From NCBI GenBank assembly GCA_003243455.1, contig QFQS01000013.1:2348-32347 (forward strand): a stretch of 30,000 bases of DNA, written 5' to 3'. This document shows positions 1-30,000 of the stretch, piece after piece. The DNA is from Cereibacter sphaeroides (GTDB lineage: Bacteria > Pseudomonadota > Alphaproteobacteria > Rhodobacterales > Rhodobacteraceae). The notes under the pieces were generated by a model that saw only the letters and a program-made list of their open reading frames with translations, was not told the DNA's origin and searched no databases. Every line of letters begins with the position of its first letter. Position 1 is the first letter of the stretch. Both the position numbers and the translations under genes were made by a program.

Positions 1-219
1 CCGGACTTCTCCCCGGCGTCGCAGGACCAGATCGCCCTCCAGCAAATCAGCGAGCGCCGCGCGCTGGCCGACATTGACGCAGGCCGGATCGCCGACGCGG
101 TGAAAAAATGTAACACCATCTGGGCCTCCCTGCCTGGCTCGCCGTATGGTCAGCGCACGGAGACGCTCGACGACTTCCTGAGCTATTTCCGCAAGGCTGG
201 CGGTAAGGTCGCCGCATGA
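1..219 (+). CDS. Endolysin C-terminal fragment (lambda R-like lytic transglycosylase type); 5' end lies outside the window
   Basis: Frame +1 reads PDFSPASQDQIALQQISERRALADIDAGRIADAVKKCNTIWASLPGSPYGQRTETLDDFLSYFRKAGGKVAA*. From memory this aligns with the lambda R C-terminus (DFSPKSQDAVALQQIKERGALPMIDRGDIRQAIDRCSNIWASLPGAGYGQ...KFKEAGG). The TGA stop at 217-219 overlaps the next ATG (ATGA). Confidence 0.85.
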   Translation, partial: PDFSPASQDQIALQQISERRALADIDAGRIADAVKKCNTIWASLPGSPYGQRTETLDDFLSYFRKAGGKVAA

Positions 220-737
220 TGGCCGCCCTCCGGTTGTTCCTGCGCGCCTACTGGAAGCCGCTCGCGGTGCTGGTTGCCGTGCTGCTGGCTCTGGGGGGAT
301 CTTTCTGGGCTGGTCATGTCTGGACCGATCGAGGCTGGCAGGTGAAGGAGTCCGCCCGCAAGGCGGACGAATCCGCCCAGGTCGCCATCGGTGAACATGC
401 CGCCCGCATCATTGAACAAGGGCGGGACATTGCCCGCGAGGAGGCTGTAAAACATGCGAACGAACAAGCCGCACGGGCGCGCGCTGATTCCGCTGCTGCT
501 GGGGCTGCTCTTGATCGGCTGCTCGCACGAGCAAAGGCCGCCGAACAAGGTAACGCCGCCGCAAGTGCGACCGCTGCCCTCGGAAGCCAGGCAAGGGACA
601 AGACCGCCCGAATGTACGCCGACTTGCTCGAAGGGACTGGAGCGCTCGCTCGACGGTATGCTGATATAGCCGACGACGCGATCACGAGGGGGGAGACTTG
701 CGAAAGGATCTATGACTCGATAGTGAGTCAGCAATGA
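216..737 (+). CDS. i-spanin (Rz-like inner-membrane spanin subunit)
   Basis: 173 aa. It has an N-terminal TM helix (LAVLVAVLLALGGSFWAG) followed by an Ala/Arg/Glu-rich coiled-coil domain. It follows the endolysin with an ATGA overlap and carries an embedded lipoprotein ORF in another frame. Confidence 0.8.
   Translation: MMAALRLFLRAYWKPLAVLVAVLLALGGSFWAGHVWTDRGWQVKESARKADESAQVAIGEHAARIIEQGRDIAREEAVKHANEQAARARADSAAAGAALDRLLARAKAAEQGNAAASATAALGSQARDKTARMYADLLEGTGALARRYADIADDAITRGETCERIYDSIVSQQ
454..669 (+). CDS. o-spanin (Rz1-like outer-membrane lipoprotein), fully embedded in the i-spanin gene
   Basis: 71 aa. The signal peptide ends in the lipobox LLIG|C (Cys23), and the short mature part is Pro-rich with additional Cys residues. 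A GAGGAGG RBS lies at 438-444. Confidence 0.8.
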   Translation: MRTNKPHGRALIPLLLGLLLIGCSHEQRPPNKVTPPQVRPLPSEARQGTRPPECTPTCSKGLERSLDGMLI

Positions 738-741
738 GAGA

Positions 742-764
742 GGGGCCTTGCGGCCCCTTTTTTT
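742..764. terminator. Bidirectional intrinsic terminator between the convergent lysis and Ig-like genes
   Basis: GGGGCC-ttgc-GGCCCC hairpin (742-757) followed by T7 (758-764). The minus-strand side is followed by CTCTCTCATT. The stop codon of the Ig-like gene lies inside the T tract. Confidence 0.7.
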
Positions 765-1764
765 ATGCGGTGACGGTGAGAGCGCAAGCCGTGGAGGTTG
801 CAGTCTTGCCGCCCGCGTCAGTAACGCGGCAAGTGTAGGATCCTGCGTCGCCAGACGCTGCTCCGGTTTTCGTGAACGTGGCCGACGTCGCGCCGGAAAC
901 TGCTACGCCATCCTTAAGCCACCGATAGGCCAACGGGGCTACGCCGCCGGAAGCCTGCACAGGGCCGATCGAGATATTGCCACCAGTAGCGACGGAGGAC
1001 GTCGCCGGGGGCTGCGTCGTAAACGCCGGGAGCGTGTTTAACGTCACGGCGCAAGCCTGAGACGTAACGGAGCCTTGCTGGCTAGCGCTGTCCTTCACAA
1101 TACACGTATACGTCGCATTGTCCCCGGTCGAGGCGGTTTTGGTATACGTGGCCGACGTGGCCCCAGTGATGTTTACGCCGTTTTTCTGCCACTGGTAGGA
1201 GTACGGCGCGAGGCCGCCAGCCGCTGCGACGGTCAGCGTCAACGGGTCGCCGATGTAGACGGCTTTAGTCGGCGTCAGGTTGGTGGAGAGGGACAGGGCG
1301 ACTTTGAGGCGGATCCGCTGGGAGTCCTTCGTCTGGCCCTGGCTGTCCGTCACGGTCACGTAATAGTCGCCGTTGTTGCTCGCCTGGTAGTTGGCGATCG
1401 CATAGCTCGGCGAGTTGGATCCGACGTTAACAGTCGTCCCGCCGGAGACTTTCTTCCACTGGTAGGAAAGCGGTTCGATCCCCCCAGAGGCGGTGACGGT
1501 AAGCGTCTGCGTTGCGCCAGCCGTTACGAAGGTCGATCCGGCATCACCGCCAGCCACGCCGGGGAGATCCTGCGTAAACACGATCGGAGGTAGCAGGGTC
1601 GGATCGTACTCGATGTAAAACATTTTCGTGGGGTCGAGATTAGCCGGGTCAGCGTCTAACCAGATAAGATCTTTTTGCGGAGTCGCGCCGCTGGCCGGAT
1701 CCTCGATCCGGGTGACTTTCCAGCCCAGCAAGTCCGGGCGGTAGTAGCGATGCCAGTAACCCAT
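763..1764 (-). CDS. Protein with three tandem immunoglobulin-like (I-set-like) domains behind a ~70-aa unique N-terminal domain
   Basis: 333 aa. Three ~85-90-aa repeats each carry the signature (P)xxYxW.K.G...(A/S)TY..(T)....G.Y.C.V.D (PLSYQWKK / PYSYQWQKNG / PLAYRWLKDG ... YYVTVTD / YTCIVKD / YTCRVTD). A GAGGAC RBS lies 8 nt upstream of the ATG. Confidence 0.8.
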   Translation of the reverse strand: MGYWHRYYRPDLLGWKVTRIEDPASGATPQKDLIWLDADPANLDPTKMFYIEYDPTLLPPIVFTQDLPGVAGGDAGSTFVTAGATQTLTVTASGGIEPLSYQWKKVSGGTTVNVGSNSPSYAIANYQASNNGDYYVTVTDSQGQTKDSQRIRLKVALSLSTNLTPTKAVYIGDPLTLTVAAAGGLAPYSYQWQKNGVNITGATSATYTKTASTGDNATYTCIVKDSASQQGSVTSQACAVTLNTLPAFTTQPPATSSVATGGNISIGPVQASGGVAPLAYRWLKDGVAVSGATSATFTKTGAASGDAGSYTCRVTDAGGKTATSTACALTVTA

Positions 1765-1839
1765 AATTTTGTCCTCGTGGTGTGGCCGTGGTATAGTTCC
1801 CCGGCATTGTAGATCATCTTTGGGCCGTAAACGAAAGGA

Positions 1840-1866
1840 GCCGCTTTTTAAGCGGCCCTTTTTTTT
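1840..1866. terminator. Hairpin plus T8 terminator-like element; the T tract is on the + strand
   Basis: GCCGCTT-ttt-AAGCGGC stem-loop (1840-1856), then CC and T8 (1859-1866). On the minus strand the hairpin is followed only by TCCTTTCGTTT. Confidence 0.5.
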
Positions 1867-1966
1867 ACAGTGCTAATGATACGGCGTAACCAATTGCGGC
1901 CCATGCTGCCGCGCTGGCGGCGATTACGGCCCAGATTACATAGCGGTGTCCGCGTAAGTCTTTCAT
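1865..1966 (-). CDS. Possible 33-aa single-pass membrane micro-protein (below the ORF-track cutoff)
   Basis: My translation is MKDLRGHRYVIWAVIAASAAAWAAIGYAVSLAL*. Its ATG overlaps the upstream TGA (ATGA, 1963-1966). It has a hydrophobic 22-aa core. Confidence 0.35.
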   Translation of the reverse strand: MKDLRGHRYVIWAVIAASAAAWAAIGYAVSLAL

Positions 1967-2358
1967 TTGAATTTCCCCTCTCTCTTGAATTTCATGATCC
2001 GCCCACGAAGGGACGGGACAGTTTTGCCTAACCAGTTGGCGACGTGCGCGTGGGTCAGCTCGTCCGGGACTACCACGCCGCGCCCGGTGGAGATCACCAG
2101 CTCGTCCAGGTCTGCCTCGGTCAGCTCATGCTCCAGGAAGCGTAGGAGCCTGCTATCCTCTCCGGTGGTCCATTCCGTATAGGTCCGGTTGAATGCCAGA
2201 GACACGCCCAGCTCCGACGCCCGGACCTGCATCTGGCGGAAGTTGCGCCCGATTTTCTTTGCCAGTTCCTCGCGTGGCATGGTCCCGGCCAGGCGGATCA
2301 GCTCCGCGTCCTGCGCGTCAGTCCATCCGATAATTTCCGCTGTTACTTTACCCATCAT
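1963..2358 (-). CDS. Small DNA-binding protein with two tandem GcrA/Myb(SANT)-like HTH repeats
   Basis: I prefer the internal start MMGKVTAEII (AGGGGGG RBS, ATGA overlap with the upstream ORF) over the 230-aa track ORF. The repeats are GWTDAQDAELIRLAG.MPREELAKKIGRNFRQMQVRASELGV and EWTTGEDSRLLRFLE.... They resemble the WTDE..E.L..LW..G.S..QIA..LG..RNAVIGK.HRLGL N-terminus of GcrA, from memory. Confidence 0.6.
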   Translation of the reverse strand: MMGKVTAEIIGWTDAQDAELIRLAGTMPREELAKKIGRNFRQMQVRASELGVSLAFNRTYTEWTTGEDSRLLRFLEHELTEADLDELVISTGRGVVVPDELTHAHVANWLGKTVPSLRGRIMKFKREGKFK

Positions 2359-2549
2359 CCCCCCTTGAGGCGCTTTCTGTTTTTGGTGGCCGCTATGGCC
2401 TCTTTGAGCGTCGTCTCTTTCCCGCCGCCCGGTTGTACCCGGTCCAGTTTTGGGTCCGGCTGGTGGAGGAAGATCTCGCCCTCCGGTGTCTCGATCGATA
2501 TGTCCGCGATCGCCTCTTTGCCAAAGACTGCCGACACTTTGCTGATCAT
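2355..2549 (-). CDS. Hypothetical small protein (64 aa from the ATG; possibly 85 aa from the TTG at 2612)
   Basis: MISKVSAVFGKEAIADISIETPEGEIFLHQPDPKLDRVQPGGGKETTLKEAIAATKNRKRLKGG. The stop is translationally coupled to the next gene. The start is ambiguous. Confidence 0.45.
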   Translation of the reverse strand: MISKVSAVFGKEAIADISIETPEGEIFLHQPDPKLDRVQPGGGKETTLKEAIAATKNRKRLKGG

Positions 2550-2605
2550 GTCGTCCAGTCCGGCGGCCTGCGCCGCCTCCCATACCTCGCGGCGCGTACC
2601 CTGTT

Positions 2606-2842
2606 TTAACAATCTTTGTGGTCGTCCCACGGTCCGAAGCCTCCCACGTAGACAAATTCTCCGCCGTTCTCCCGGCGCTCCTGCCTGGCGTGATATGCCG
2701 CGTTCTGCCCGGTTCGTTTCTCCTGCTTCATTGCCTTGCAGGTCTTGGAACAAAAGCGGCCCCAGCCCCGTTTAAGGTCCGCCATGCGGACCTCGTGCAT
2801 TTTGCCGCACCATTCGCACGGCTTGATTTTTTTAGCGGCCAT
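2606..2842 (-). CDS. Small zinc-ribbon-like protein (CxxC...CxxxC)
   Basis: 78 aa, MAAKKIKPCEWCGKMHEVRMADLKRGWGRFCSKTCKAMKQ.... It has four Cys in a Zn-ribbon spacing and overlaps the neighbouring genes in the operon. Confidence 0.6.
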   Translation of the reverse strand: MAAKKIKPCEWCGKMHEVRMADLKRGWGRFCSKTCKAMKQEKRTGQNAAYHARQERRENGGEFVYVGGFGPWDDHKDC

Positions 2843-3113
2843 ATGCTTTCCGTAATGCGTCGTTAGCGTTTGCCATCAGCTCGGCGATCTCGCGCTGCGT
2901 GGCCTTGTATGCCTCCTGGCCTGCGTACCACATGCGGAGGCGGTTGGTCAGGCACTGCGCGTTAAAGGCCAGTGTCTGCGCCTGGACCAGCATCAGGCGG
3001 CTAACTACGCGCGCTTTGTTTGCGCGGGCGAAGATTGTCCCCGGCTGGTCGCCCCAGTATTTGGCGCGGAGGTCTGCCAGTGTCTGGCCGTTTTTGTTGG
3101 TTGCTGTAGTCAT
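2832..3113 (-). CDS. Hypothetical protein (93 aa)
   Basis: I prefer the start MTTATNKNG, which has a GAGGAA RBS 7 nt upstream, over the upstream start at 3173 in the track. I recognise no motifs. Confidence 0.6.
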   Translation of the reverse strand: MTTATNKNGQTLADLRAKYWGDQPGTIFARANKARVVSRLMLVQAQTLAFNAQCLTNRLRMWYAGQEAYKATQREIAELMANANDALRKAYGR

Positions 3114-3144
3114 TTCGTTTTCCTCGCTGGTTGGTGTGAGAAAG

Positions 3145-3173
3145 AATATAACAAAGGATAAATGGGGCCGCAA
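3145..3173 (-). promoter_or_regulatory. Putative sigma70-type promoter for the small-gene sub-operon
   Basis: The minus strand reads TTGCGG-17 nt-TATATT. The -10/leader contains the 15-mer TATTCTTTCTCACAC (3134-3148), which recurs at 27273-27287. Confidence 0.4.
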
Positions 3174-3197
3174 GGATTATTTTAATTATTTCGTGAT

Positions 3198-3226
3198 AAA
3201 AGAGAAAAGGCCCCGGAGTGGGGCCT
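3198..3226 (-). terminator. Intrinsic terminator after the MTase-like gene
   Basis: The minus strand reads AGGCCCC-actcc-GGGGCCT followed by TTTTCTCTTTT, starting 5 nt after the TAG stop of the 245-aa gene. Confidence 0.7.
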
Positions 3227-3230
3227 GAGA

Positions 3231-3968
3231 CTAGCGGACGTTAGCGAGGAAGGTAGCGAGCGCGAAGCCCTCCGGGGTGGCGCTGCGTATGTTCTTTGTG
3301 CGGGTACTCGATCCGCCCAGCTTGGACCAGCCGGGATTATCTTTAGCCGCCGGGACTGGCTTCACCTCCGGCATAACGAAGCCGCCACCACACCAGATCC
3401 CGGTCTGCTTCGGATAGGCATCGCGCGCCGGGTAGATCTCCGGGTATAGGCGGTGCTGGTGGTCGTCCGGCAAGTAGCCGCCGTAATGGTACGGGTGAAA
3501 CCAATAATCACAGGGCCGCCACATCGTCGAGAGCCGGGAGATCTTCGGATTCTCCAGCATCCAGGGGACGGGCATCGAATCATCATAATGTCCGTTCTCA
3601 TAGGCGGCGAGGTCCGCCACCTCCTCCACCATGCGAGCCAGCGCGACGGCCTTGTGTTGGAAGTACGGATCCCGCGCCCGTTTCAGCTCCCACCAGCGCG
3701 CCCCGGTGCAAGTAAGGTCGGTACACTCGGCAAACGAGGCGACAAACTCAATACCTGCGCCGACCTCCTCGACGATGGTCAGCGCCTCGATCTCGGTGTG
3801 CTGCGCGTTAAACATGCGCCCGACGCGGATAAGGTTCGGCTCCTGCGGGTCTGGGTGGATCCCGTCCTCGTGCTGGCCGTCATACATCCAGCATTGATAG
3901 CCAGCCCGGAGCCACGGATCAACCATGATCCGCGTAAGGTTGAATAAGAAAATCGCCTTACGCGTCAT
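3231..3968 (-). CDS. Divergent DNA (cytosine-5) methyltransferase-like protein with degenerate motifs
   Basis: 245 aa. FAECTDLTCTGA resembles motif IV (PPCQxFSxAG), WMLENPKISRL resembles motif VI (ENV), and FLFNLTRIM..WLRAGY sits where motif I (LFxGxGG...AG) would be but lacks the glycines. A GAGG RBS precedes the ATG, which lies 1 nt after the upstream stop. Confidence 0.45.
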   Translation of the reverse strand: MTRKAIFLFNLTRIMVDPWLRAGYQCWMYDGQHEDGIHPDPQEPNLIRVGRMFNAQHTEIEALTIVEEVGAGIEFVASFAECTDLTCTGARWWELKRARDPYFQHKAVALARMVEEVADLAAYENGHYDDSMPVPWMLENPKISRLSTMWRPCDYWFHPYHYGGYLPDDHQHRLYPEIYPARDAYPKQTGIWCGGGFVMPEVKPVPAAKDNPGWSKLGGSSTRTKNIRSATPEGFALATFLANVR

Positions 3969-3969: not shown

Positions 3970-4554
3970 TTACGGCCTCGCTGGCATAATGATCATCGTG
4001 GACGGTCCGAAAGGCGTCTTAAACTCGACGCGCATCGGCATGTTATTACCCGCGAAGTGGAGATCAACAAACGGCATCTTAATCCCGAATTTTTTCCCCA
4101 GCTTTTCGACGAGGCCCAGATATTCCGCCATCACCTTAACGTCCGTCACGGCTTTGGAGTTGTTCTTCGCGCTCTCGATCACGCGGCCCAGATCAGGATA
4201 ACGGGCGTCCACAATGTCCACGGTCCCGACGGCCAGACGCTGGCGGCGGAAGTCGAAGCCGTCCAGGTCCTGCGGCTTGTCGGCCATCTGCGCGCACCAG
4301 TACACGATCCCGGCTTCGGTATCGATCACGGCGGTGGAGTAGGCGCGCCCGGTCGGCGGCGTGGAGACATTCAGGATCAGGCCCTCCGCCGGGGCCTCGG
4401 TCAGCGCGGAGCGGGTGGAGAGCGCTACGTGGCCGTTAGACGTCTGGATCTCGTCGCCTTTGAAGTGTAAAGCGTTCAGGTAATACCGCACATCCTGGCG
4501 GCCTTTGGTGAGCTGGTGAGCGCGGAGCGCGTCAACGGGTGCATAGATGATCAT
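3970..4554 (-). CDS. Truncated DNA polymerase III beta sliding-clamp (DnaN)-like protein lacking domain I
   Basis: 194 aa. QDVRYYLN (aa 20-27, nt 4474-4497) is identical to the E. coli DnaN domain-II motif HQDVRYYLNGMLFE. SNGHVAL matches TDGHRLA, IVDARYPDLGRVI matches LVDGRFPDYRRVL, and the C-terminal MIIMPARP matches YVVMPMRL (all from memory). A GGGAGA RBS is present. Confidence 0.65.
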   Translation of the reverse strand: MIIYAPVDALRAHQLTKGRQDVRYYLNALHFKGDEIQTSNGHVALSTRSALTEAPAEGLILNVSTPPTGRAYSTAVIDTEAGIVYWCAQMADKPQDLDGFDFRRQRLAVGTVDIVDARYPDLGRVIESAKNNSKAVTDVKVMAEYLGLVEKLGKKFGIKMPFVDLHFAGNNMPMRVEFKTPFGPSTMIIMPARP

Positions 4555-4567: not shown

Positions 4568-5269
4568 TTAAATCAGGCTTTTGCCTGCGTACATCATTTC
4601 GGTAAGCGTTACGTATTCCGTCTTGATCTCGCCACGCTTGCGGGGCTTGATCAGGAATAAGACGGACGACTTCGGATTTTTGCCGCCAGGCTCCCCGGTC
4701 ACGGCATCCACAAACGCCACGCGCCCGGACGTCTCGCCGTCGCTGGTGATATGGACGATCACGGAGGCATGATCCAGCGCTTTCTTAAACCAGGCCGTGG
4801 AGGCGTCGGAGTTGACGAGGAGGACCGTCGAGACGCTGCGCGTCTTTGCCTGCTCGATCGCTTTGGTCACAAACGGCATCGGCTCCGCGTATGGTGGGTT
4901 ACACCATGCCAGCCCGTTCTCCGCTCCCCATTGCACATCGTCCCGGAGCGCGTTCGTCTCCTCGTCCAGATAGCAGGCGCACAGGGCGTTAATCTTCTCG
5001 GCGGCCACGTCGATCCCAAACTCGCCGAAACGCTTACGCGCCCAGGCGAAAAGCCACTCCGGCGTCCGCCACTTCTGGCGCACTTTGTCCGGCGTCTTGC
5101 TGCCCTTGAAACGGCGACCGCTCACGCGGTTCTCGTCGTCGGCCATGATCTCGTTAGTCGCTTTCTGGCCGATGGCCGCGAGCTGGGTCATAACGCCGTG
5201 GGCCACGCCATGCTCCGCGCCTGCCTGCTCCAGCATTTCGATCGTGCTCTTGTCGTTCTCGTCTTTCAT
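4568..5269 (-). CDS. Phage Dam-family DNA N6-adenine methyltransferase
   Basis: 233 aa. It has WRTPEWLF..., the catalytic NPPY motif (WCNPPYAEP) and the ...RVAF... layout typical of the phage 'Dam' N6-A MTase family. An AAAGGA RBS is present. Confidence 0.85.
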   Translation of the reverse strand: MKDENDKSTIEMLEQAGAEHGVAHGVMTQLAAIGQKATNEIMADDENRVSGRRFKGSKTPDKVRQKWRTPEWLFAWARKRFGEFGIDVAAEKINALCACYLDEETNALRDDVQWGAENGLAWCNPPYAEPMPFVTKAIEQAKTRSVSTVLLVNSDASTAWFKKALDHASVIVHITSDGETSGRVAFVDAVTGEPGGKNPKSSVLFLIKPRKRGEIKTEYVTLTEMMYAGKSLI

Positions 5270-6313: not shown

Positions 6314-8368
6314 ATGGTAGAGACACTGGAGCGCCAGATAGCGGCGATCGACAAAGACGCCATACTCCGCGCGCTGGGCGACTTGCCCGTGACTCCATAC
6401 GATCATCAGTTCGTAGCGTATGAGGCTTGTCAGCAAGCGATCCGCAAATATCCCGGCCCGGTTATTGTCGATGCCGCCGTGTCTGCGGGTAAGACAATCA
6501 TGATCGCCATGCTGGCGCGCCGGATCCGCGATCTCGGCTATCCGGCCATGATCCTGTCTCGTCAGGCGGAGATCATCGATCAGGACCATGAGGAGCTGAA
6601 AAACTTCCAGGTGTGGTCCTCGATCTACTGCGCGGGCATCAATAACACGAAGTCGAACAAATTCCCGATCATCGTCGGCTCGGAGGGTACGGTGATCGGC
6701 GGCATTAAGCCAGGCGAAAAGCTGGCGAACTATGCGCCGCTGTTCCTGCTGATCGATGAATGCCATCACGTCAACATTGAGGACCTGATCCGCTCGGAAA
6801 ATCGCAAGGTCCCGGAGTACCTGGTGGAGAATGGGGCCTATGTGCTGGACGAGTTCGGCGAAAAGGTTCAGGTAGGGGAACACGTCGGAGAGACTTACGA
6901 AGAAATGATCGAGAGTGGCCGCGCCGCCTATACGATCATCATTCGCACGTTTCAGGAGCGATGCCGCCGCGTCCACGGTAAGGAGCTGCGGATCATCGGT
7001 TACACCGGGACGCCTTACCGGGGCTGCGAGTCCATCATCCAGCCGGACCTTAAGGAGCCGGGATTCTGGCGTAAGAAGGTATGCGAGATCTCTACGGAAT
7101 ACCTGGTAAGCGTCGGCGCTGTCGTCCCGACACGCTTCGGGATCTCCGATCTCCGGTACGACCTGAGCCAGTGGCGATCGACGGGCGAGGAGGGGATCAA
7201 GGAGTTTTCCGACGCTGATATGAAAGCGATGGAAGCCGCGATCCACAAGGACAAAAAGCTAACACAAAAAATCATGGCGGAAGTGTACGCCATCACCGAA
7301 AACCGTAATGGGGTGCTGGTGACGTGCGCCGGGGTCCGCCACTGTAAAGAGGCCGCCGCCGCGCTGCCGGAGGGGACGCCGTTCGCCATCATCACGGAGG
7401 ACACGACGCCGCGCAAACGCCGCGAGATCCTCAAAGATGCCAATACGGGCAAAATAAAATTCATCTTCCAGGTTAACGCGCTCACGACGGGCGTCAACGT
7501 GCCTTTCTGGGACACGTCGGTGATCCTGCGTAAGATTGGCTCCCTTACCCTGTTAACCCAGCTCTTAGGCCGTGGGATGCGTATTCTTAAGCCGTTCCAT
7601 CTGTCCGCCGGGTACACGAAAGAGGATCACCTGGTACTCGACTACGCCGGGACGCTCGACGAGCTGGGATCGTTGTACTTCTCCCCGCTGCTGGAGGCTT
7701 ACCAGCATAACGCCGACGAGAGCAAGGGTAAGCTGGTTCAGCGCTGCCCGAAATGTTACGCGGCTGGCCGCACGGTAATGAATGGCGAACATGCTCGCCG
7801 TTGCCGCTGGGTGGATCCTGATACGAAAATCCGATGTGACCACTTTTTCACGTTCATAACCTGCGACGACTGGAAGGACTCCAGCGGGAAGATCGTCACG
7901 CAAAAAGGCTGCGGCGCGAAAAATGACATTGTGGCCCGCATTTGCCGCTGCTGCGGGAATAGCCTCGTGGATCCGAATGAGAAGCTATCCCACACGGCAT
8001 ACAGCAAGGATGATTATTGCACGGTCAGCGATTTCAGGATCGAGCCAGCGCGAGGCCGTAATGGCAACGATACGGGCGGCGTGGCTTTCCGGTACGTTCT
8101 GGAGCGTGACGGCGTGGAGTTCATCGCGTGGCAAGTGTTCTGGCCGGGTAGCGATTCCCCCCAGGCGCGCAAGGAGTGGCTACATAACGCGGTCAATAAG
8201 CACGTACTGGACGGAAGCATGAGAAAACAGATCAAGGAGTGCCGGACGGTCGGCGCTGTCATGAGTTACGCCGGGTACTTTATGCGCCCGCTCAAAGTGA
8301 CTCACCGCAAGATCGGCAAGGGTAAAGACATTATTTCGAACAAAATTTTTCTGAATGAGGACTTTTAA
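6314..8368 (+). CDS. SF2 (DEAD/DEAH, type III restriction Res-like) helicase with a C-terminal multi-Cys zinc module
   Basis: 684 aa. It has Walker A DAAVSAGKT, Walker B/DExH LLIDECHH and helicase C-domain motifs (TTGVNVP, LLGRGMR). The C-terminus has CPKC...C..C and C...CRCCG clusters. Confidence 0.9.
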   Translation: MVETLERQIAAIDKDAILRALGDLPVTPYDHQFVAYEACQQAIRKYPGPVIVDAAVSAGKTIMIAMLARRIRDLGYPAMILSRQAEIIDQDHEELKNFQVWSSIYCAGINNTKSNKFPIIVGSEGTVIGGIKPGEKLANYAPLFLLIDECHHVNIEDLIRSENRKVPEYLVENGAYVLDEFGEKVQVGEHVGETYEEMIESGRAAYTIIIRTFQERCRRVHGKELRIIGYTGTPYRGCESIIQPDLKEPGFWRKKVCEISTEYLVSVGAVVPTRFGISDLRYDLSQWRSTGEEGIKEFSDADMKAMEAAIHKDKKLTQKIMAEVYAITENRNGVLVTCAGVRHCKEAAAALPEGTPFAIITEDTTPRKRREILKDANTGKIKFIFQVNALTTGVNVPFWDTSVILRKIGSLTLLTQLLGRGMRILKPFHLSAGYTKEDHLVLDYAGTLDELGSLYFSPLLEAYQHNADESKGKLVQRCPKCYAAGRTVMNGEHARRCRWVDPDTKIRCDHFFTFITCDDWKDSSGKIVTQKGCGAKNDIVARICRCCGNSLVDPNEKLSHTAYSKDDYCTVSDFRIEPARGRNGNDTGGVAFRYVLERDGVEFIAWQVFWPGSDSPQARKEWLHNAVNKHVLDGSMRKQIKECRTVGAVMSYAGYFMRPLKVTHRKIGKGKDIISNKIFLNEDF

Positions 8369-14629: not shown

Positions 14630-17600
14630 TTACTGCTGGTTATCGTCTGCGGCGGCTCGTCCGCCAGCGCCCGAAAAGAAGCCCACGATCCCGGCCCGGT
14701 TAACTGCTGCCTGTTCCTCCGGGGTCATGGCTGCGAATAGCTCGCGCCACTGGGGGGAATTTGCCATTTCGCGCTCCGCTTCGTTGACGAAAGTCCGGCC
14801 CGCCGGGGTGAGCTTGCCGGAGCTTTGCGCCGCTGCTGCCTGCATGAGTTTATTAAAATTCGTGCCGGATAGCACATTATCCGCAAGGACCGATCGCGGG
14901 ACACGGTTCGCACGGGCCAGGCCCTGGGCTGCGGACAGTGCGGCGTTACCTGCCGGACCTGCTGCGGCGTATGCTGCGGCATGTTTCCCGATCCACCCAG
15001 CCGCGCCGTAGAGCTTGGACAGCGGACCGCCAGCTCCCGGATCGTCGAAGCGTTTCACGAAGTCATTGATCGCCCCGGTGGTCGTGGTGAAACGTTGTGC
15101 GCGGTCGATACCATTCGCGACGCGGTAGATCTGCATGAAGCGGACGCGCTGCTCTCGCGGTAGGTGCTTCATAACGTTACCCAGAGTGCCGTTAGCCTGC
15201 GCCGTCTTGTACCAGTCCACGAAGCCGGGGACGGCAAAAGTATTGCGCGCGCTACGTGCGCCCAGGGTACGCTCCAGCGCGTTAGCCACTACCTCGCCTT
15301 TGAGGCTCTCCGGGGTGGCCGCCATCAGCTTGTCCCAGTCGCGGGCGCTGCCGCCTTTCTTGCCCAGGTTAAGGATCGCGTTTTGTACTTTCCCGGTGAT
15401 CGAGTCGTTGAGGTTTTTCCCCAGCGTATCGATCGCGATCGTCTCCAGGTCCTTACGACGCTTAACGAGCTGTTTCCCCACGTTCCAGTCGTCCGCCGCG
15501 CCGTACTTGGCCGCGATAGCCTCCTGATCCTCGGTTAATCGCGCGTAGAGCTGTTTTAGCGCTGCCTTGTCGGAGTCCACAAACGGACCGGAGCGAGTGT
15601 TAAGCGCCTGGCCTACCTGTCGGCGGAGCTTGTCCAGACGGGCATAAGTCGGCGGCCCCATAGAGTCGTTAACAGGCTGTAGCCAGTCCAGCGCCTTACG
15701 CTCTGCCGCGTCCAGCGTCCCCAGCCCCTCTACGTCCGCCTTGTCCCAGATATGGCGTAACGTGTTGTTTGCGTCCACGGTTTCGTTTTTCGGGATTTTG
15801 GTCGCGATCTGGTTATAAACGTCGTCCGCCTGTTTCCCCAGGTCGTCAATAATGGCACGGGTGCGGGTGCTAAACGCCTGATCGATCGTCTGCGCGTTCA
15901 TGGTCCCCATGCTGTCGATCAGCTCGTCCGCTTTCCCGGCCAGACGCCCGATCCCTTCGAGCTGCTGGGATTCCAGGTTAGAGCCTTTGCGGCTAACTAG
16001 CTGCTGGACCGTCGCGCGGAACTGAGGATCACGCGCATAAGCCGCCGGGGTCAGCGAATCCTCGATCCCCAGTTGCTGGGCGGTGCGCATCAGCTTTTTG
16101 TCCACGTCGGCCATGTTCGCAAGGTCGATCGCGTCCTGGGAGGCCCGGAGGTTCTCGCCGTTCGGCGCGGCCACGTTCTCGTCGCCAGTAAAGCGGAATT
16201 TGCTTTGATCGCGGGCCACGGCGTCCGAAATATTGGCCTCGGTGGCCGCCGGGGTCGGTGCTGCGTCGCCAGCGGCACGAGAAGCCGCTCCAGCCTCCTC
16301 CCATGCGCCCTTAGCCGCATTCCATACCTTGCTTGCTCCGCCGATAAGCGCACGGCCTACGGCCTCGCCAGCGGGCGATAATGCGATGTTGGTCAGCGTC
16401 TCCTCCGGGTCGCCACGGCCAGCCGCGATCGAGCCGGGAACGGCACGAGCCGCCGGAGCTGCCACCCATTTCTCCACGCCATCGGCGACGCGGGTCAAAA
16501 CGCTGGCGACTTCGGGGCTTGCGCGCTCTGCGAGGCCCATCAGCTCCGTAGCTGCTTTGGCCTTACCTGCGGACGGCAACGGCGCGAGGAGGTCCCCGAT
16601 CAGGGTCCCGATCTGCGCGTATTTGTCGGTAGGCGGTTCGAAGCCGGGGATCCCCACAGGCGTGATAGTTGGCGCTTGCGTGTCCTGGTCAACGATACCC
16701 AGCGACTTACCCGCATCCGTGGCCGCGTTGGAAACCATATTGACCAGCGAGATCGGCGTGTTGAGGAGGTCGATCCCGGTCTGGACGATACCGCGCCCGC
16801 CCTGGTCGAGAGCGTGGAGCGCGGTCTGGCCTAGCTGTTCCCAGTTTTGGGCGGCTTGCTCGTTGGGATCGACGGATCCAGGGGCCTGTCCGGCTTGATC
16901 AGCGCTGCCCGGCTCTCCGTTACCGTTCGGCGCTGCCGCCCCTCGTGCGACATTAGATCCCGCTTGATTAGGTGCATTGCCAGCGGGGACGGCTGCGACT
17001 TGCTGATCGGCCCATCCGGCTCCGGCGGTTGCGCCATTTTCTCCAGCTCCGGCGGTAAAGGTTCCTGCTTCGTCGAACTGGTCGAAAAAGTTACCAGAAG
17101 ATTTAGAGCCATCCCGGCGGGCGCTGGTTGCGCGCTGAATAGGTTCGCCGCTATCACCAGCCCCTCGACTAGTCCACTCGTTAAAACGTTCATCCACATA
17201 TTGACGCCCCTCCGGGCCGGGGGTTGCCTGGCCCGCCAGTTGTTTGTCTACGTTGCCGGGGCCGTCGTGGTAAGCCTGGAGCGCAAGGCCCCAGTCTCCG
17301 TAACGCTGGTACATCTGGGAGAGGTACTGCGCCCCGGCGTCAGCCTGGAGCGCCGGATCGCTTTTGAGGGCGTTCCAGTCGTAACCCATATCCTCCGCCG
17401 TGCCTTTCATGACCTGCGTTAAACCGTGCGCGCCTTTGCTGGAGACAGCGGACGTAGGATCCGCCGTGCCGCCCGTTTCCTTGCTCGCGAGTGCCGTCAT
17501 GATGCCAGCGGGTAGGCCCCATCGTGCCCCGGCGCTCTCCAGTAAATCAGAATACCCGCCGCCAGACGATCCCGCTTGCGAAGGAATCTGATTAGGGAGC

Positions 17601-26790: not shown

Positions 26791-26797
26791 GGTCTGG

Positions 26798-27235
26798 TTA
26801 TGCGTTGCCCTGCGCCTGAGCTGCCAGGAGCTGGATAATCGGCTCCACGTCGGCCTCCGCCGCCGGGATAGGCAGGTCAACCACGCCGCGCGGCTCGCCT
26901 TTGGTAATGTGGAATTTCCAGATCGCCATCACGTCGTCCAGCGAGTAGCCCGCCAGGATCTCCTCGTGGATCTTCTGCGCGCCGTTGGTTTCGTTAAACT
27001 CCAGGACCTGATCAACGGTCGGCATCTGGTTCCCAAATTTCGCCATTGTGCGGGCCATAACGACCACGCCGACGCCACGGGACAGGAAGGTGTTACCCTG
27101 CTCACCGCCGGAAACCATCACGGCGATCTCCGGCTCGTCGGTGTTAGGGTGGTAGGCAAGGGCGAGGGTAACGAAGCCGCCGCGCGGAGTGACTTCGAAA
27201 ACGCGGGCTGCTGGGGTGGTGGTGATTTCTTTCAT
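26798..27235 (-). CDS. Hypothetical acidic protein (145 aa), cassette gene a
   Basis: ATG start with an AGAGGA RBS. The sequence looks mixed alpha/beta. I recognise no motif. Confidence 0.7.
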   Translation of the reverse strand: MKEITTTPAARVFEVTPRGGFVTLALAYHPNTDEPEIAVMVSGGEQGNTFLSRGVGVVVMARTMAKFGNQMPTVDQVLEFNETNGAQKIHEEILAGYSLDDVMAIWKFHITKGEPRGVVDLPIPAAEADVEPIIQLLAAQAQGNA

Positions 27236-27253
27236 GGTGTCCTCTCTCGGTTA

Positions 27254-27269
27254 ATCACGATAGCGTGAT
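27254..27269. promoter_or_regulatory. Perfect palindrome ATCACG-ATAG-CGTGAT, a candidate operator in the cassette leader
   Basis: A 6-bp inverted repeat with a 4-bp spacer lies between the putative -10 (27282-27287) and the RBS of cassette gene a. Its half-site equals the ATCACG(C) motif found in the early promoters. Confidence 0.45.
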
Positions 27270-27276
27270 GTTGTGT

Positions 27277-27305
27277 GAGAAAGAATAGCCCGGACGTACC
27301 GGGCT
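27277..27305 (-). terminator. Terminator-like hairpin directly after the portal gene
   Basis: The minus strand reads AGCCCGG-tacgt-CCGGGCT followed by ATTCTTTCTC. Confidence 0.5.
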
Positions 27306-27310
27306 GTAAA
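27282..27310 (-). promoter_or_regulatory. Putative promoter for the four-gene cassette, overlapping the portal terminator hairpin
   Basis: The minus strand reads TTTACA-17 nt-TATTCT. The -10 and leader 15-mer TATTCTTTCTCACAC (27273-27287) is identical to 3134-3148. Confidence 0.4.
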
Positions 27311-27336
27311 GTGTTTTTTTAATGGAATCGTTAAAT

Positions 27337-29571
27337 TTATTGCGCGGCACGTTCCAGGGTGCTGTCGGCCTGCTGCTGCGCCTGGCGCTCGGCCAGTTGC
27401 TGCGCTGCGCGGTCGCTCTGGATCTGGTGGCCCTGCCCGATGGATTTCAGGAACAAGTCGGCCTGTTTGTGCGCGTCCTGGCTCTGGGCGGTGACGTACT
27501 TCTGGAGGATAGCCACGGCGGCCATTAGCTGATCCTGCGGGATAGCTGCGGCCTCGGCCATCGTCTTGACGGTCTGCGCCTGCTTGAGCTGGCCGTCTGC
27601 CTGCGTCCCCTGCGCCTTGAGCTGCAATTCTAAGCGCTTGTTGTCCTGCTCCATAACGGCGGCCTTGCCCTGGTCTGCCACGCCCTGCGCTGCGACCATC
27701 TGCGCGTCCGGCTGGTCCTGCTGGCTCTGCTGGGCCTGCGCTACCATCTGTTTTTCCTCGTCCGTCTGCGGCTTCACAATGCCGGAGAGTAAAAGCTGGT
27801 TGCGGGTGTACTCTTTGAAGTCCTGGAGGCCCTCGCCGTCCATGTTCGCAATGATCAGGCTCATGACGATCGTCGCGTTAGGGTCGCCCGGTTGCATGGT
27901 CGCTAACAGGTTAGTCAGGCTGCGGACGGTCTGCTGGCGTCGCGTCTGGGAGGACTCGCCGACGTCGGCAACAATTTCATATTTGCCGCGCTTGAGGTCG
28001 TTAATCGCGATCACTTCCTTCGTCTCGCGATCGACGACTTTCCCGGTCATTAACACGAGGTCGTCGCTCCCGTCCTCCTGCTGGATCCTCACGTAAGACT
28101 CGGAGCCGTAAACCTTGCGAGCGGCGGACAGGTAGACGCGGCCACAATGGCGCAACGTCTTAGCCAGGTTGTCCATGTAGAGCGCGCCCTGGCCGTCCAT
28201 GCGGGCGAAAATAGCCTCCACGGTTTCGGTCGCCAGGTTAGACGGCAGCGCTTCGAGCTGGGAGGATCCGACAATCTGCTGGATAGTCGCCCCGGTGTAC
28301 TGGAGGACGGCAGCGAGCGCCGGAGAGAGCGGAGTCGCCGGAGTATAGCCCAGCGGTCCGGCCTGCTGGACGACCTCACCAGACGCATTACGGAGCGATT
28401 TAGCGGGCAGGTATGCGGGGCGCTTCGTGTTGCGATCCCCCCAGGCGTTGGCGAGATTCCCAGGGATCATGTCGATATCCATGATCGGGATGTTGTCGCC
28501 GCCTGCCTGCGCGGCCTGGTCGGCCATCATGGACACGATCAGGTTTTCAAGACGCTGGGCGTCCATCGCGAGCGTGGCGTGGCCCATCACGCGCTCCTGG
28601 TTGTCGATAAACGAGCGGCGCGCGTTGAAGATAAAGACCGGGATCCATTCGAACGGGATCAGCTTCGGCTCCTCGATCCACTCCCCGCCGGAAAACAGGC
28701 CGCAATAGACCTTACGACGTTTGACGCGGCGATCCTTGAGCTTTTTCCAGCCTGCGGCCTTAAGCTCGTCGAAAACCTGCTCCATGTCGTCCTCGTCGTA
28801 TACCTCCGTTTCCCCGGTGAGCGGGTTCTGGTAGGAGATCACGGTGGTGTCCTCGATCTTCACCTCATAGTAACGGGCGATATAAATCGCGTCTTTAGAG
28901 GCCCAGTCAAACCATTTGCCCGTGTTCAGCTCCATGAGGTCCTCCGGGGCCATCGCGTCCGGGTAACGCTCCTCGTACTTCTCCGGGGTCATGCTGAATA
29001 GCTCGGCCATCCACATAGCATCACTGCGATCGTACATTTTGGAGTCAGGATCGACAAAGAGGCACGAGGCCGGATCGTAGATCGGGTAAAAGACGATATG
29101 ACGCTCCTCATTGTCGGGATCAAATTCGTCCTCCAGCTCCGTGTCCATGCGAAACGCGCCCATCCCGCCGTCGATGCCGTCGCCGTAAGTGTTATCGACG
29201 GACTCCGGCCCGTTGCTCTCGTTGTAGTCGGCGCGGAATTTGCCGTTTAGCTTGTCGGCCAGCTCCTCGGATGCCTTTTCGTCCTTCGGACGGAATACCA
29301 CGGAGACACGGTTAAGGCGGTAATCGGTGATCAGGCGGTCGCACTCGCGGGCCACTTTGTTAAGTTCGAATCGAGGGTATTTCTCGAATCGTTCATCATC
29401 CATCGCAAAGCCGGAGTTAGTTGATCCTTCCCACTGCGCGCCCGGAATACGGACAAAGCGCTGGGTTTCGATCATTTTCTTGCGGCTTTGCTCCTCGCTG
29501 GCGATCGTCTGGCTCAGGCGCTTACGCGCCGTCTCATGCCAGTTCTGGGCCGATTTGGTGACTCGTGCCAT
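27337..29571 (-). CDS. Portal protein (P22 gp1-like, with a long C-terminal helical barrel)
   Basis: 744 aa. IARYYEVKIEDTTVISYQNPLTGETEVY...LKDRRVKRRKVY matches P22 [28 protein letters not shown]...IAERQIKRRRVY. The C-terminal GIVKPQTDEEKQMVAQAQQSQQDQPDAQMVAAQGV matches [36 protein letters not shown] (from memory). A GGAGA RBS is present. Confidence 0.95.
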   Translation of the reverse strand: MARVTKSAQNWHETARKRLSQTIASEEQSRKKMIETQRFVRIPGAQWEGSTNSGFAMDDERFEKYPRFELNKVARECDRLITDYRLNRVSVVFRPKDEKASEELADKLNGKFRADYNESNGPESVDNTYGDGIDGGMGAFRMDTELEDEFDPDNEERHIVFYPIYDPASCLFVDPDSKMYDRSDAMWMAELFSMTPEKYEERYPDAMAPEDLMELNTGKWFDWASKDAIYIARYYEVKIEDTTVISYQNPLTGETEVYDEDDMEQVFDELKAAGWKKLKDRRVKRRKVYCGLFSGGEWIEEPKLIPFEWIPVFIFNARRSFIDNQERVMGHATLAMDAQRLENLIVSMMADQAAQAGGDNIPIMDIDMIPGNLANAWGDRNTKRPAYLPAKSLRNASGEVVQQAGPLGYTPATPLSPALAAVLQYTGATIQQIVGSSQLEALPSNLATETVEAIFARMDGQGALYMDNLAKTLRHCGRVYLSAARKVYGSESYVRIQQEDGSDDLVLMTGKVVDRETKEVIAINDLKRGKYEIVADVGESSQTRRQQTVRSLTNLLATMQPGDPNATIVMSLIIANMDGEGLQDFKEYTRNQLLLSGIVKPQTDEEKQMVAQAQQSQQDQPDAQMVAAQGVADQGKAAVMEQDNKRLELQLKAQGTQADGQLKQAQTVKTMAEAAAIPQDQLMAAVAILQKYVTAQSQDAHKQADLFLKSIGQGHQIQSDRAAQQLAERQAQQQADSTLERAAQ

Positions 29572-29588
29572 TGTGTTCTCCGTGGGTG

Positions 29589-30000
29589 TCAGTAGTTGCT
29601 CGGCACATTATAGCCGTGATAGTCGTCGTTTTTCACGCGCTCCGGCGGCTGCATCAACATGCAAAGCACGTCGGCCATGCCTGGCGATTTCATTTTGAGC
29701 TTGGTCCGCATCTGCGGCTTAGGCATACGGGCAAACTTGCCGTTGGTGTTGTATACGCGCGGAATACGGCAGACCTCGGCGCGTAACTTCTGCATATGCT
29801 CCCCGATCCCGGCCTTGTCCAGACTGATCAGCTCCTCCGGGTTGTGGTAGATGCCTTTCACGACGGCCTCGTAAGTCTTTTCGAATCGGCGGCGTAACAG
29901 GTAGATATCCTGGCTCCCCCTGTTCGCAAAAGCATCAACATTTTTCAGGAGGTTGTCGCCCTCGGTCTTGTTATTGAGCCAGTGATCCAGCTCCACCAGC
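29589..30000 (-). CDS. Terminase large subunit, C-terminal part (5' end outside the window)
   Basis: The ORF is open to the window edge. ...YLLRRRFEKTYEAVVKGIYHNPEELISL......LRAEV..I......NGKF...PK..M.K.LKMKSPGMADVLCM is the typical end of TerL nuclease domains. It lies immediately upstream of the portal gene. Confidence 0.85.
   Translation of the reverse strand, partial: LVELDHWLNNKTEGDNLLKNVDAFANRGSQDIYLLRRRFEKTYEAVVKGIYHNPEELISLDKAGIGEHMQKLRAEVCRIPRVYNTNGKFARMPKPQMRTKLKMKSPGMADVLCMLMQPPERVKNDDYHGYNVPSNY

Follow-up and report, generated by a model that had tools for sequence, protein, structure and literature searches.

Avoidance of GATC (the Dam site) in enterobacteriophages was reportedly described by McClelland in 1984 and by Deschavanne and Radman in 1991. 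In this classical view, phages with a Dam enzyme of their own are at most neutral for the word, as T1 is. Phage orphan Dam enzymes are thought to guard phage DNA against restriction and MutH. The avoidance itself has been put down to MutH and under-methylation (Pereira-Gomez and Sanjuan 2015, PMC5014478; PMC4687349), and when GATC sites were added to phiX174, the mutation rate was 8-50-fold lower, with under-methylation limiting the effect and neighbouring sites enhancing it (PMC5014478; PMC4687349). In addition, the characterised relatives T1 Dam and HP1 Dam are GATC-specific, specificity is relaxed in some adenine methylases of phages, and the role of phage orphan Dam methyltransferases has been described as poorly understood (PMC7556043).

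Over-represented words have been described as well. Cyanobacterial HIP1 (GCGATCGC) goes together with orphan methylases for GATC and CGATCG; whether it serves a function under selection or arises from a repair ratchet is debated (PMC4390886; PMC5861425). Furthermore, Chi, DNA uptake sequences, and KOPS are short words kept dense via weak selection, with interchangeable positions and turnover. For these words the proteins that read them are known, and their orientation usually follows the strand, whereas GATC is palindromic.

Here we analysed a stretch of 30,000 nt (the window), in which GATC is in surplus. Enterobacteriophage avoidance involves this same word and these same hosts, and also Dam, MutH, and the under-methylation of fast-replicating phage DNA; in both cases selection would act on synonymous positions genome-wide. 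However, the sign is opposite: measured against a codon-aware null the enrichment is 1.5-1.9x, and against base composition about 3x. The phage carries its own Dam and has a surplus, where the classical view allows neutrality at most. As with HIP1, the over-represented word is a palindrome and a methylation target, its excess spans the whole genome, and it is kept via turnover rather than site conservation and occurs alongside orphan adenine and putative cytosine methylases. Nevertheless, the word is a bare tetranucleotide without a flanking consensus, its enrichment is 1.7-3x against 15-300x for HIP1, and it resides in a virulent phage genome instead of a bacterial chromosome. A HIP-type highly iterated palindrome (at least 8 nt, at least 10-fold excess) was rejected because of this low enrichment and because GCGATCGC has only three copies in the window.

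The original prediction had taken the phage to be P22-like. However, megablast with the window gave matches restricted to Sortsnevirus, Murrayvirus, and allied phages, and the records are classified as Sortsnevirus. The window thus belongs to the virulent IME279 species of Sortsnevirus, and according to the annotations its P22-type part is the morphogenetic module only (portal, coat, ejection proteins, needle, and tailspike). P22-like (Lederbergvirus) identity was therefore rejected; P22 also avoids GATC (O/E 0.42), unlike the enriched window. No DNA polymerase gene is encoded by the window phage. For comparison we used eight clade genomes from five lineages (IME279, sortkaff, Sortsne, Kc237, Lumpael, Kc166B, Skarpretter, and C130_2).

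GATC surplus in the window and the clade

The exact count was 347 GATC sites per 30,000 nt, or 1 per 86 nt (about 11.6 per kb). Earlier hand counts in sampled stretches proved correct except for positions 1-720, which hold 7 sites and not 8. Base composition (order-0) predicts 108.7 sites, an O/E of 3.19 that bears out the roughly 3-fold excess estimated at first. An order-1 Markov model predicts 146.5 sites and a maximal-order model 234.8, so the ratio is not near 1 even in the latter case (1.48).

It had been allowed that codon and dipeptide usage might explain the excess. When synonymous codons were shuffled within genes, with proteins and codon usage kept, 196.4 ± 9.3 sites were expected against 342 coding GATC (O/E 1.74, z 15.6). 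Whole-codon permutation gave 177 expected sites, and a shuffle that also preserves codon-junction dinucleotides gave 254 ± 7.5 (z 11.7). All three reading frames were enriched over the codon shuffle: 80 observed vs 47 expected for GAT/C (slash, codon boundary; z 6.7), 19 vs 4.5 for xGA/TCx (z 7.4), and 243 vs 145 for xxG/ATC (z 13.2). Furthermore, GATC is the top outlier among 136 reverse-complement-merged 4-mers of the window (z 16). It occupies 340 of the 626 synonymous positions where it is attainable (54%), and G precedes 65% of ATC codons. Thus, the surplus is real and lies at the DNA level, and codon or dipeptide usage does not account for it. The excess first described as strong is therefore genuine, but of the 3-fold figure roughly half comes from normal amino-acid and codon usage, which lifts the expectation from 109 to 196.

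The surplus is shared by the clade. GATC ratios in the eight genomes were 2.8-3.5 over the order-0 expectation and 1.45-1.94 over the codon null, and GATC was the first-ranked 4-mer in five of the six other clade lineages tested and the second in Kc237. The noncoding DNA of the window holds just 5 sites in 1206 nt; pooled from seven clade genomes, noncoding DNA holds 113 sites vs 64 expected (O/E 1.76). By comparison, neither P22 nor the host is enriched: E. coli K-12 is about neutral (1.05), although Dam-methylated throughout, and a host sample has one site per 204 nt, so that the window is 2.4-fold denser. T1 (1.04), phiKMV (0.91, despite 62% G+C), Taid (0.89), and the Dhillonvirus EK99P-1 (0.78) are about neutral too, and coliphage J8-65 (55.6% G+C) has 0 sites vs about 150 expected. 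These values agree with the statement that coliphages outside the clade show either GATC avoidance or neutrality.

A turnover test showed how the surplus is kept. The frequency of G at four-fold sites preceding a conserved ATC was 0.66-0.83 in every clade lineage vs 0.14-0.41 in controls. In near-saturated pairs, where the window lacks this G, the relative has it at 60-75% of sites (controls, 8-19%), and the memory of GATC sites was not above controls. Raised gain in relatives together with such site memory means that gains are up and losses are down at both outer bases, G and C. The excess is re-created at non-homologous positions in diverged relatives; since the bias re-formed at new sites in lineages with near-saturated synonymous sites, it is not a relic. 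Thus, the GATC excess is lineage-wide and upheld by a directional force that is weak but acts continuously. Enrichment in each frame and also in noncoding DNA, with frequency rather than sites conserved, is the pattern of a genome-wide word under density selection with turnover, and the comparison of relatives speaks for a lasting directional force, for instance selection for GATC density. However, substitution patterns alone cannot tell weak selection from equally strong biased repair, and it is in this sense that we infer selection.

Layout of sites and avoidance of palindromes

As first described, the sites lie in genes on both strands; the per-gene distribution showed enrichment in nearly every gene, both early and late. 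They are spread evenly over the window, with a local density of 5-18 per kb. The six sites reported for positions 6481-6600 were found again by exact count and are the maximum per 120 nt. Nevertheless, such local peaks are attributable to chance, because uniform placement of 347 sites gives this maximum with P = 0.92, and no significant GATC clusters were found in the window. If anything, the sites are slightly over-dispersed and very short spacings are slightly deficient; evenness of spacing is a suggestive trend only (p 0.02-0.09). No extended flanking motif was found around GATC in the window, where the flanks show codon periodicity alone. Helical phasing past this periodicity was not found either, the 21-nt spacing (10 occurrences, with about 6 at other spacings divisible by three) being not significant. 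As a separate observation, Chi is mildly enriched in the window (7 vs 2.8).

Restriction-site avoidance, as known from phages, is extreme here too. The window is without 31 of the 64 hexamer palindromes and has CTAG only five times, and GATC-containing hexamers are exempt from this purging. However, word removal alone creates no surplus elsewhere: in a shuffle that forbids the 31 absent palindromes and new CTAG sites, the expectation stays at 196 ± 8. Naked ATCGAT (ClaI-type) is missing from seven of the eight clade genomes, with 13-20 GATC-overlapped copies retained in each; in T1, 7 of 12 ATCGAT sites are naked. This footprint is what would be expected if GATC methylation protects. Preferential overlap with GATC was not found for TCGCGA and TCATGA, and TCCGGA is missing even in shielded form. 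Thus, the idea of a restriction shield does not generalise to these words.

Methyltransferase genes

Two methyltransferase genes of the window flank a resolvase gene, and this order is also annotated in IME279, Sortsne, Lumpael, and C130_2:

3231..3968, minus strand: putative second modification enzyme, divergent minimal cytosine-C5-methyltransferase-like, 245 aa (phrog_757, 'DNA methyltransferase')
3970..4554, minus strand: RusA-like resolvase gene, between both methyltransferase genes (phrog_3007, E 2.2e-44)
4568..5269, minus strand: phage N6-adenine DNA methyltransferase, T1/HP1 'Dam' type, 233 aa (PF05869, TIGR01712, phrog_111)

The phage had been credited with a Dam-family methyltransferase of its own. 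The 233-aa protein is indeed an intact phage N6-adenine methyltransferase, but of another family than E. coli Dam. It matches Pfam PF05869 (E 1.6e-46, 158.5 bits, cut-off 28.1) and the NCBIfam equivalog TIGR01712 (124.4 bits, cut-off 97.05), carries the catalytic motif NPPY at residues 124-127, which conforms to (D/N)PP(Y/F), and shares 36% identity with the DNA adenine methyltransferase of coliphage T1. By these measures it fits the phage orphan Dam enzymes. The E. coli/T4 Dam family (PF02086, MethyltransfD12) was rejected, since PF05869 is the sole Pfam match (E <= 0.01); the Dam-family label would fit by function alone. The protein is kept in all eight clade genomes (45-98% identity) and is the presumed writer of Gm6ATC. 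In sortkaff its gene appears split, yet that genome keeps the GATC excess; the split may be a recent event or a sequencing error.

For the 245-aa protein, no sequence match was found in Pfam (including PF00145), NCBIfam, or PDB. Its homologues carry the source name 'Dcm methylase', and its F-P-E-C-T and E-N-P motifs are invariant; cytosine-C5 methyltransferases have catalytic P-C and E-N-V motifs on a Rossmann fold. The AlphaFold model (pLDDT 93.5) has weak best fold matches (TM 0.40-0.43) to the DNMT1 catalytic domain and the prophage CP-933R MTase 3g7u. The protein was found in all clade genomes and in 1481 phage records.

The adenine methylase is not the whole cause of the surplus, because T1, EK99P-1, and Pectobacterium phage Taid have the same methylase family and are neutral, and Ec_L1, with both clade methylases, reaches just 1.19x. 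Possession of the methylase is therefore not sufficient for GATC enrichment, and in this respect the clade differs from the other PF05869 carriers tested. The original proposal of selection for dense m6A together with a phage Dam is partly upheld: a directional force is favoured by the turnover data, and the methylase by itself does not bring about enrichment.

Forces that may maintain the surplus

We lean towards positive selection that favours densely placed Dam-methylated sites as the force behind the surplus. In this scheme, the T1/HP1-type methylase and host Dam would together keep every GATC methylated during fast replication, and full methylation would lift the MutH and under-methylation penalty behind GATC purging in other coliphages. 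From its homology to T1 Dam and the ATCGAT footprint, the methylase probably targets GATC, and virion DNA would be fully methylated. Each additional Gm6ATC in the clade might then bring a small benefit, so that synonymous positions would drift to GATC where the protein allows. The turnover test (odds ratio about 5) would correspond to a scaled selection coefficient of ~1.6, as ln(odds ratio). As for the payoff, we would rank first m6A marking as protection for restriction targets that overlap a GATC, second a strand signal near every mismatch for host methyl-directed mismatch repair in a phage without its own DNA polymerase, and third a reader of dense Gm6ATC. Among the functions proposed for dense marking, only restriction shielding has a footprint, the indirect one at ATCGAT; mismatch repair and other coverage-type functions predict even spacing, which is at the suggestive level given above.

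Among the alternatives, a neutral by-product survives best, though we consider it unlikely. A strongly expressed GATC methylase and host MutHLS could preferentially fix new methylatable sites (an Elhai-type 'ratchet'), or methylation could shield sites from mutation, and GATC would build up with no benefit to the phage. This ratchet has been published for the closest analogue, the over-represented palindromes associated with orphan methylases of GATC and CGATCG specificity (PMC4390886). In addition, the effect measured here is small and of nearly-neutral order, and conversion bias likewise predicts raised gain and lowered loss. However, T1, EK99P-1, and Taid combine the same methylase family with MutHLS-proficient enterobacteria and remain neutral, Ec_L1 hardly departs from them, and E. 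coli is fully methylated without any surplus. Furthermore, the signal was measured at the outer G and C, and a bias there is beyond what simple mutation protection of m6A could produce. By reasoning, no MutH-directed repair step prefers the GATC-bearing strand, a gap that Elhai lists as a weakness of that author's own ratchet model (PMC4390886).

It is less probable still that a clade-specific or host factor binds dense Gm6ATC, with selection for binding density rather than for protection or repair. The enrichment is clade-specific and the methylase widespread, so an extra clade-specific component is needed, and for many clade genes the function is not known. Candidates are cooperative binding of the SeqA type, a protein for packaging or condensation, and a self-recognition mark. 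For the last, the P1 pac site, with its methylated GATC cluster, offers an analogy. One site per 86 nt against one per 204 nt in the host could tell phage from host DNA, and the slight deficit of very short spacings and the trend to evenness point the same way. However, a candidate reader was not found, and the window shows neither helical phasing past codon periodicity nor GATC clusters, so the idea is speculative.

A compositional artefact (high G+C, ATC or GAT codon preference, dipeptides, translation-level codon-pair bias, compensation for palindrome purging, or a relic of an earlier host) is largely refuted and very improbable, for although amino-acid and codon usage raises the expectation and other words are heavily purged, the codon, junction-preserving, and palindrome-constrained shuffles leave a 1.35-1.74-fold excess (z 11.7-15.6), the enrichment extends to three frames and noncoding DNA, G+C-rich phiKMV is neutral and J8-65 is empty of sites, and the bias has been re-established at new sites.

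Selection for a density of methylated sites could also take a bolder form, which we regard as doubtful: dense Gm6ATC may be a maintained 'self-mark' of the clade, its density sensed by a clade-specific reader or exploited through a host system (MutHLS high-fidelity replication or SeqA-type binding). If this were true, GATC would rank with Chi or uptake sequences as a functional word spread over the whole genome, and the clade would be the first in which a phage's orphan Dam methylase co-evolves, as one system, with how densely its target occurs, a mirror image of the way T7-like and phiX174-like phages purge GATC. In any case, a surplus opposite to the classical coliphage avoidance gives a concrete handle on the purpose of phage-encoded Dam methylases.

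Size and distribution of the GATC surplus

The window contains 347 GATC sites (1 per 86 nt), against 108.7 expected from base composition (observed/expected ratio, O/E, 3.19), 146.5 under a first-order model and 234.8 under a maximal-order Markov model. Thus, the roughly 3-fold over-representation claimed from hand counts in the original prediction holds at an exact count. All of these hand counts were right except that of stretch 1-720, which has 7 sites and not 8. Among all reverse-complement-merged 4-mers, GATC is the top positive outlier in the window (z 16), and its mirror, CATC/GATG, is the strongest negative one.

The gene model of the window draws on its listed ORFs and on how related phages are annotated, and comprises 37 CDS (96% coding). 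In a synonymous-codon shuffle within each gene, which retained all proteins and each gene's codon usage, 196.4 ± 9.3 GATC were expected, and 342 coding GATC were observed (O/E 1.74, z 15.6). Whole-codon permutation gave an expectation of 177, and a shuffle that also held every codon-junction dinucleotide gave 254 ± 7.5 (z 11.7). The full count and the codon and dipeptide null had been set beforehand as possible refutations, and the excess survives both (347 sites; O/E 1.74); codon or dipeptide usage as the whole cause is ruled out by the three shuffles. From these expectations, roughly half of the 3-fold figure comes from amino-acid and codon usage, and a large remainder is left.

Furthermore, the enrichment was found in all three frames, with 80 GATC against 47 expected in GAT/C, 19 against 4.5 in xGA/TCx and 243 against 145 in xxG/ATC, which favours a DNA-word effect and disfavours a translational codon-pair bias. 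G precedes the ATC codon in 65% of 376 cases and other A-initial codons in 25-39%. The Ile codon is ATC in 89% of cases after G (56-68% after other bases), and the Asp codon is GAT in 49% before C (14-34% before other bases). Compositional explanations of the GATC excess are essentially excluded.

Almost all genes, whether early or late, show the enrichment, and it is found on both strands, as had been predicted for the strands. The density varies from 5 to 18 GATC per kb, with a variance/mean ratio of about 0.9. The local peaks that had been pointed out did not stand: 6 sites in 120 nt is the maximum and a chance value under uniform placement of 347 sites (P = 0.92). Very short GATC-GATC spacings are under-represented in the window, no origin-like or pac-like clusters were seen, and helical phasing of the spacings was not significant. 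No flanking consensus was found around the window sites, in agreement with the varied flanks described originally, and an extended motif was rejected, the cyanobacterial HIP1 octamer having just 3 copies in the window.

Of the synonymously attainable GATC positions in the window, 340/626 (54%) are occupied, namely 63% in xxG/ATC, 46% in GAT/C and 26% in xGA/TCx. Compared with random choice among attainable positions, the evenness of placement was at most suggestive (p 0.02-0.09). The noncoding DNA of the window has 5 GATC in 1206 nt, a sample too small to judge. When the noncoding DNA of seven clade genomes is taken together, it has 113 GATC, with 64 expected from its own composition (O/E 1.76), which agrees with the codon-corrected coding excess.

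The phage clade, its controls and its methyltransferases

By megablast, the window in its entirety belongs to the Sortsnevirus IME279 species, with 97-98% identity to Escherichia phage sortkaff as well as the Klebsiella phage vB_KpnS_IME279; window position 1 corresponds to sortkaff 10186. Sortsne, Kosakonia phage Kc237 and the Murrayvirus group (Lumpael, IME_EC2) have 76-85% identity to the window. Sortsnevirus and allied phages are virulent podophages of ~42 kb with 59-60% G+C, whose isolation hosts were E. coli K-12, Klebsiella, Salmonella and Kosakonia. The phage had been called P22-like, which is taxonomically not so; it is the morphogenetic module (portal, coat, ejection proteins, needle and colanidase tailspike) that is P22-type. 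The annotations list phage genes for primase, helicase and recombination proteins, and none for a DNA polymerase. The following gene is present in the window and sortkaff and absent from IME279, with coordinates shifted by 225 nt relative to IME279:

2606-2842, minus strand: additional small gene of 78 aa, whose PHROG hits are weak and HNH-related

The GATC excess extends over the whole clade: IME279, sortkaff, Sortsne, Kc237, Lumpael, Kc166B, Skarpretter and C130_2 have O/E values of 2.8-3.5 over composition and 1.45-1.94 under the codon null. GATC ranks first among 4-mers in five of the six other clade lineages and second in Kc237. The same analysis was applied to control genomes.

Codon-null O/E of GATC in control genomes
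E. coli K-12 chromosome, 40 kb: 1.05
Coliphage T1: 1.04
Pseudomonas phage phiKMV, 62% G+C: 0.91
Pectobacterium phage Taid: 0.89
Dhillonvirus EK99P-1: 0.78
P22: 0.42
Bonnellvirus J8-65, same host strain, 55.6% G+C: 0 GATC, about 150 expected

The comparison with the host and P22 that the original prediction called for thus gave no excess in either (1.05 and 0.42), and phiKMV and J8-65 rule out a generic high-G+C effect. Textbooks have stated for forty years that phages of enterobacteria either avoid GATC or are neutral towards it. The clade has the opposite sign, and it stands as the opposite pole to the classical GATC-avoiding coliphages. Escherichia phage J8-65 (E. coli K-12 host, positions 1-40000) is without any GATC in 40 kb and without 38 of the 64 hexamer palindromes, a striking case of the opposite GATC strategy within the same host.

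Two methyltransferase genes of the window are conserved in all eight clade genomes:

4568-5269, minus strand: phage N6-adenine methyltransferase (PF05869/TIGR01712), above both curated cut-offs, with an NPPY motif
3231-3968, minus strand: C5-methyltransferase-like protein, 245 aa, with F-P-E-C-T and E-N-P motifs

The first has 36% identity to the T1 DNA adenine methyltransferase. It had been described as a Dam-family enzyme; it is indeed a phage N6-adenine methylase, but it lies outside the E. coli Dam family (PF02086). Schneider-Scherzer et al. in 1990 reportedly found T1 Dam to be GATC-specific, and Piekarowicz and Bujnicki in 1999, a study cited in PMC7556043, are said to have found the same for HP1 Dam. 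The gene is intact in the window and IME279 and is annotated as two ORFs in sortkaff (14753-15453), where tblastn aligns just residues 103-233 in one piece. This split is a frameshift or a sequencing error, and the GATC excess of sortkaff persists.

The second protein had no match in Pfam, NCBIfam or PDB sequences, and its annotation as "Dcm methylase" is name propagation. Its two motifs are invariant. The structure model is confident (pLDDT 93.5), and its fold bears a weak resemblance to the catalytic domain of DNMT1 and to methylase 3g7u of prophage CP-933R. By its motifs, model and fold matches, the protein appears to be a divergent, minimal enzyme that is only "C5-MTase-like". Its family has 1481 phage records (T1-like, rV5-like, Dhillonvirus and Campylobacter phages) and many metagenomic contigs.

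T1, EK99P-1 and Taid carry a PF05869-type methylase yet are GATC-neutral, and Ec_L1 carries both methylases with GATC at merely 1.19x. Thus, neither enzyme is sufficient, and the excess is not an automatic result of the PF05869 methylase or of the pair. An additional factor peculiar to the clade would be needed. A Vsr- or MutH-like nuclease is not among the annotated endonucleases of the window (HNH/EndoVII-like, VRR-NUC-like and RusA-like).

Turnover of sites and purged palindromes

Codon alignments of 26-34 orthologous genes were made between the window and six relatives. At four-fold third positions before an ATC conserved in both genomes, the frequency of G is 0.66-0.83 in every lineage, against 0.14-0.41 in matched control contexts. 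The three most diverged pairs are close to saturation (four-fold identity 0.38-0.42). In these pairs, of the sites at which the window lacks G, 60-75% carry it in the relative (22/32), against 8-19% in controls, and the memory of individual sites is not above that of controls, so site-specific conservation of GATC was not seen. Ile positions (ATC after G) and Asp positions (GAT before C) showed the same turnover behaviour. This pattern indicates a force that acts continuously at all sites that permit GATC, with gains made more frequent and losses less so, and it is the density and not the particular sites that is conserved. The odds ratio of about 5 would correspond to a scaled selection coefficient near 1.6, comparable to codon-usage selection.

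In addition, the window lacks 31 of the 64 hexamer palindromes, and the complete genome of sortkaff lacks 29 of them. For instance, CGGCCG (24.6 expected), GCCGGC (26.9), CCGCGG (23), GGCGCC, CCCGGG, CAGCTG and TGGCCA all have 0 copies against 14-27 expected under the codon-shuffle null. This purge indicates very strong restriction-driven selection. Since it is so extreme, we tested whether forbidding other words alone lifts GATC. A constrained Markov-chain (MCMC) shuffle, which never makes an absent palindrome or a new CTAG, gave an unchanged 196 ± 8, so the rise is not a side-effect of purging palindromes and CTAG.

The purged sets are lineage-specific. GGATCC has 30-38 copies in Sortsnevirus and Murrayvirus and 0 in Skarpretter despite 512 GATC there. 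GCGCGC (40) and CGCGCG (26) of the window have a single copy each in Lumpael and in Skarpretter; GACGTC, TCGCGA and CTTAAG occur in the window and are missing from Skarpretter. These sets read as a record of different restriction exposures.

Other words are also skewed. Of CTAG, 109 copies are expected in the window and 5 are present, while relatives have 2-4 in their complete genomes; CCAG/CTGG shows a strong surplus in the window (z 9). In enterobacteria, such scarcity and surplus together are usually attributed to very-short-patch repair. CCWGG is not depleted in the window (113 against 94). Under the codon null, GTTA/TAAC (z 9.5), GTAA/TTAC (z 6.5) and TTAA (z 6.1) are over-represented, as are CTTAAG (14 against 3.5 expected) and GTTAAC (13 in coding DNA against 5.4). 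This surplus could be a second-methylase target or A+T-rich leftovers of the palindrome purge. Chi (GCTGGTGG) is mildly enriched, with 7 copies in coding DNA against 2.8 (codon null, P = 0.01) and 16 in the whole sortkaff genome:

Window 2459 and 3455, plus strand: Chi
Window 3690, 5713, 12403, 20043, 26584 and 29993, minus strand: Chi

ATCGAT, a ClaI-type site, is blocked by overlapping Dam methylation. It has 13-20 copies per clade genome, and in seven of the eight genomes every copy is overlapped by GATC (14/14 in the window). Naked copies, without such overlap, number zero in those seven, against 2.5-3.7 expected per genome, while they make up between one third and more than half of the ATCGAT sites in T1, Taid and phiKMV. 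ATCGAT behaves like the other purged palindromes unless it is Dam-shielded. This behaviour points indirectly to a GATC methylation that is active and serves against restriction. A general Dam shield over TCGCGA, TCATGA, TCCGGA and TCGA was rejected, the pattern being seen in ATCGAT alone. Thus, shielding of Type II palindromes cannot explain about 150 surplus GATC.

Possible causes and meaning of the surplus

We lean, if only slightly, towards weak, continuous positive selection for dense Gm6ATC (adenine-methylated GATC) as the cause of the surplus. In other phages, GATC avoidance is attributed to a penalty from MutH and under-methylation (PMC5014478, PMC4687349). The phage's own methylase would cancel this penalty and thereby permit dense GATC. 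Among the candidate payoffs, we rank first protective marking, in which overlapping restriction targets would be shielded, perhaps including Type I half-sites, where hemimethylation would suffice. Second, dense GATC may recruit host methyl-directed mismatch repair to a phage without a DNA polymerase. In phiX174 with added GATC, the mutation rate was 8-50-fold lower, under-methylation was limiting and neighbouring sites improved the effect (PMC5014478). Third, a reader of GATC site density may exist.

The main rival, which we regard as unlikely, is a neutral ratchet of methylase plus repair. Such a ratchet has been proposed for HIP1 (PMC4390886), but T1-type phages with a methylase are GATC-neutral, and so is E. 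coli itself. Two more readings are excluded: continuing turnover rules out a relic of an earlier host, and m6A cannot merely protect existing sites from mutation, since it is the outer G and C, which are unmethylated, that show the measured bias.

What Dam methylases encoded by phages do is said to be little understood to this day (PMC7556043). In the open-access literature, we found no GATC statistics for Sortsnevirus or its allies and no GATC enrichment in any phage. The surplus can be likened to methylation-linked k-mer bias and to selected genome-wide words. It comes as a moderate surprise, and its chief merit is that it can be approached by experiment. The clade is a clean experimental system, which infects E. 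coli K-12, grows easily and has a ~42 kb synthesisable genome, with more than half of the synonymously attainable GATC positions filled and still filling. It bears on what dense adenine methylation pays for, whether restriction shielding, mismatch repair and mutation-rate control, or something new. Furthermore, the clade genomes have among the most extreme palindrome purges seen here and a shielded-only class of ClaI-type sites. They thus document in compact form the pressures that restriction exerts in enterobacterial hosts, a matter of relevance to phage therapy design.
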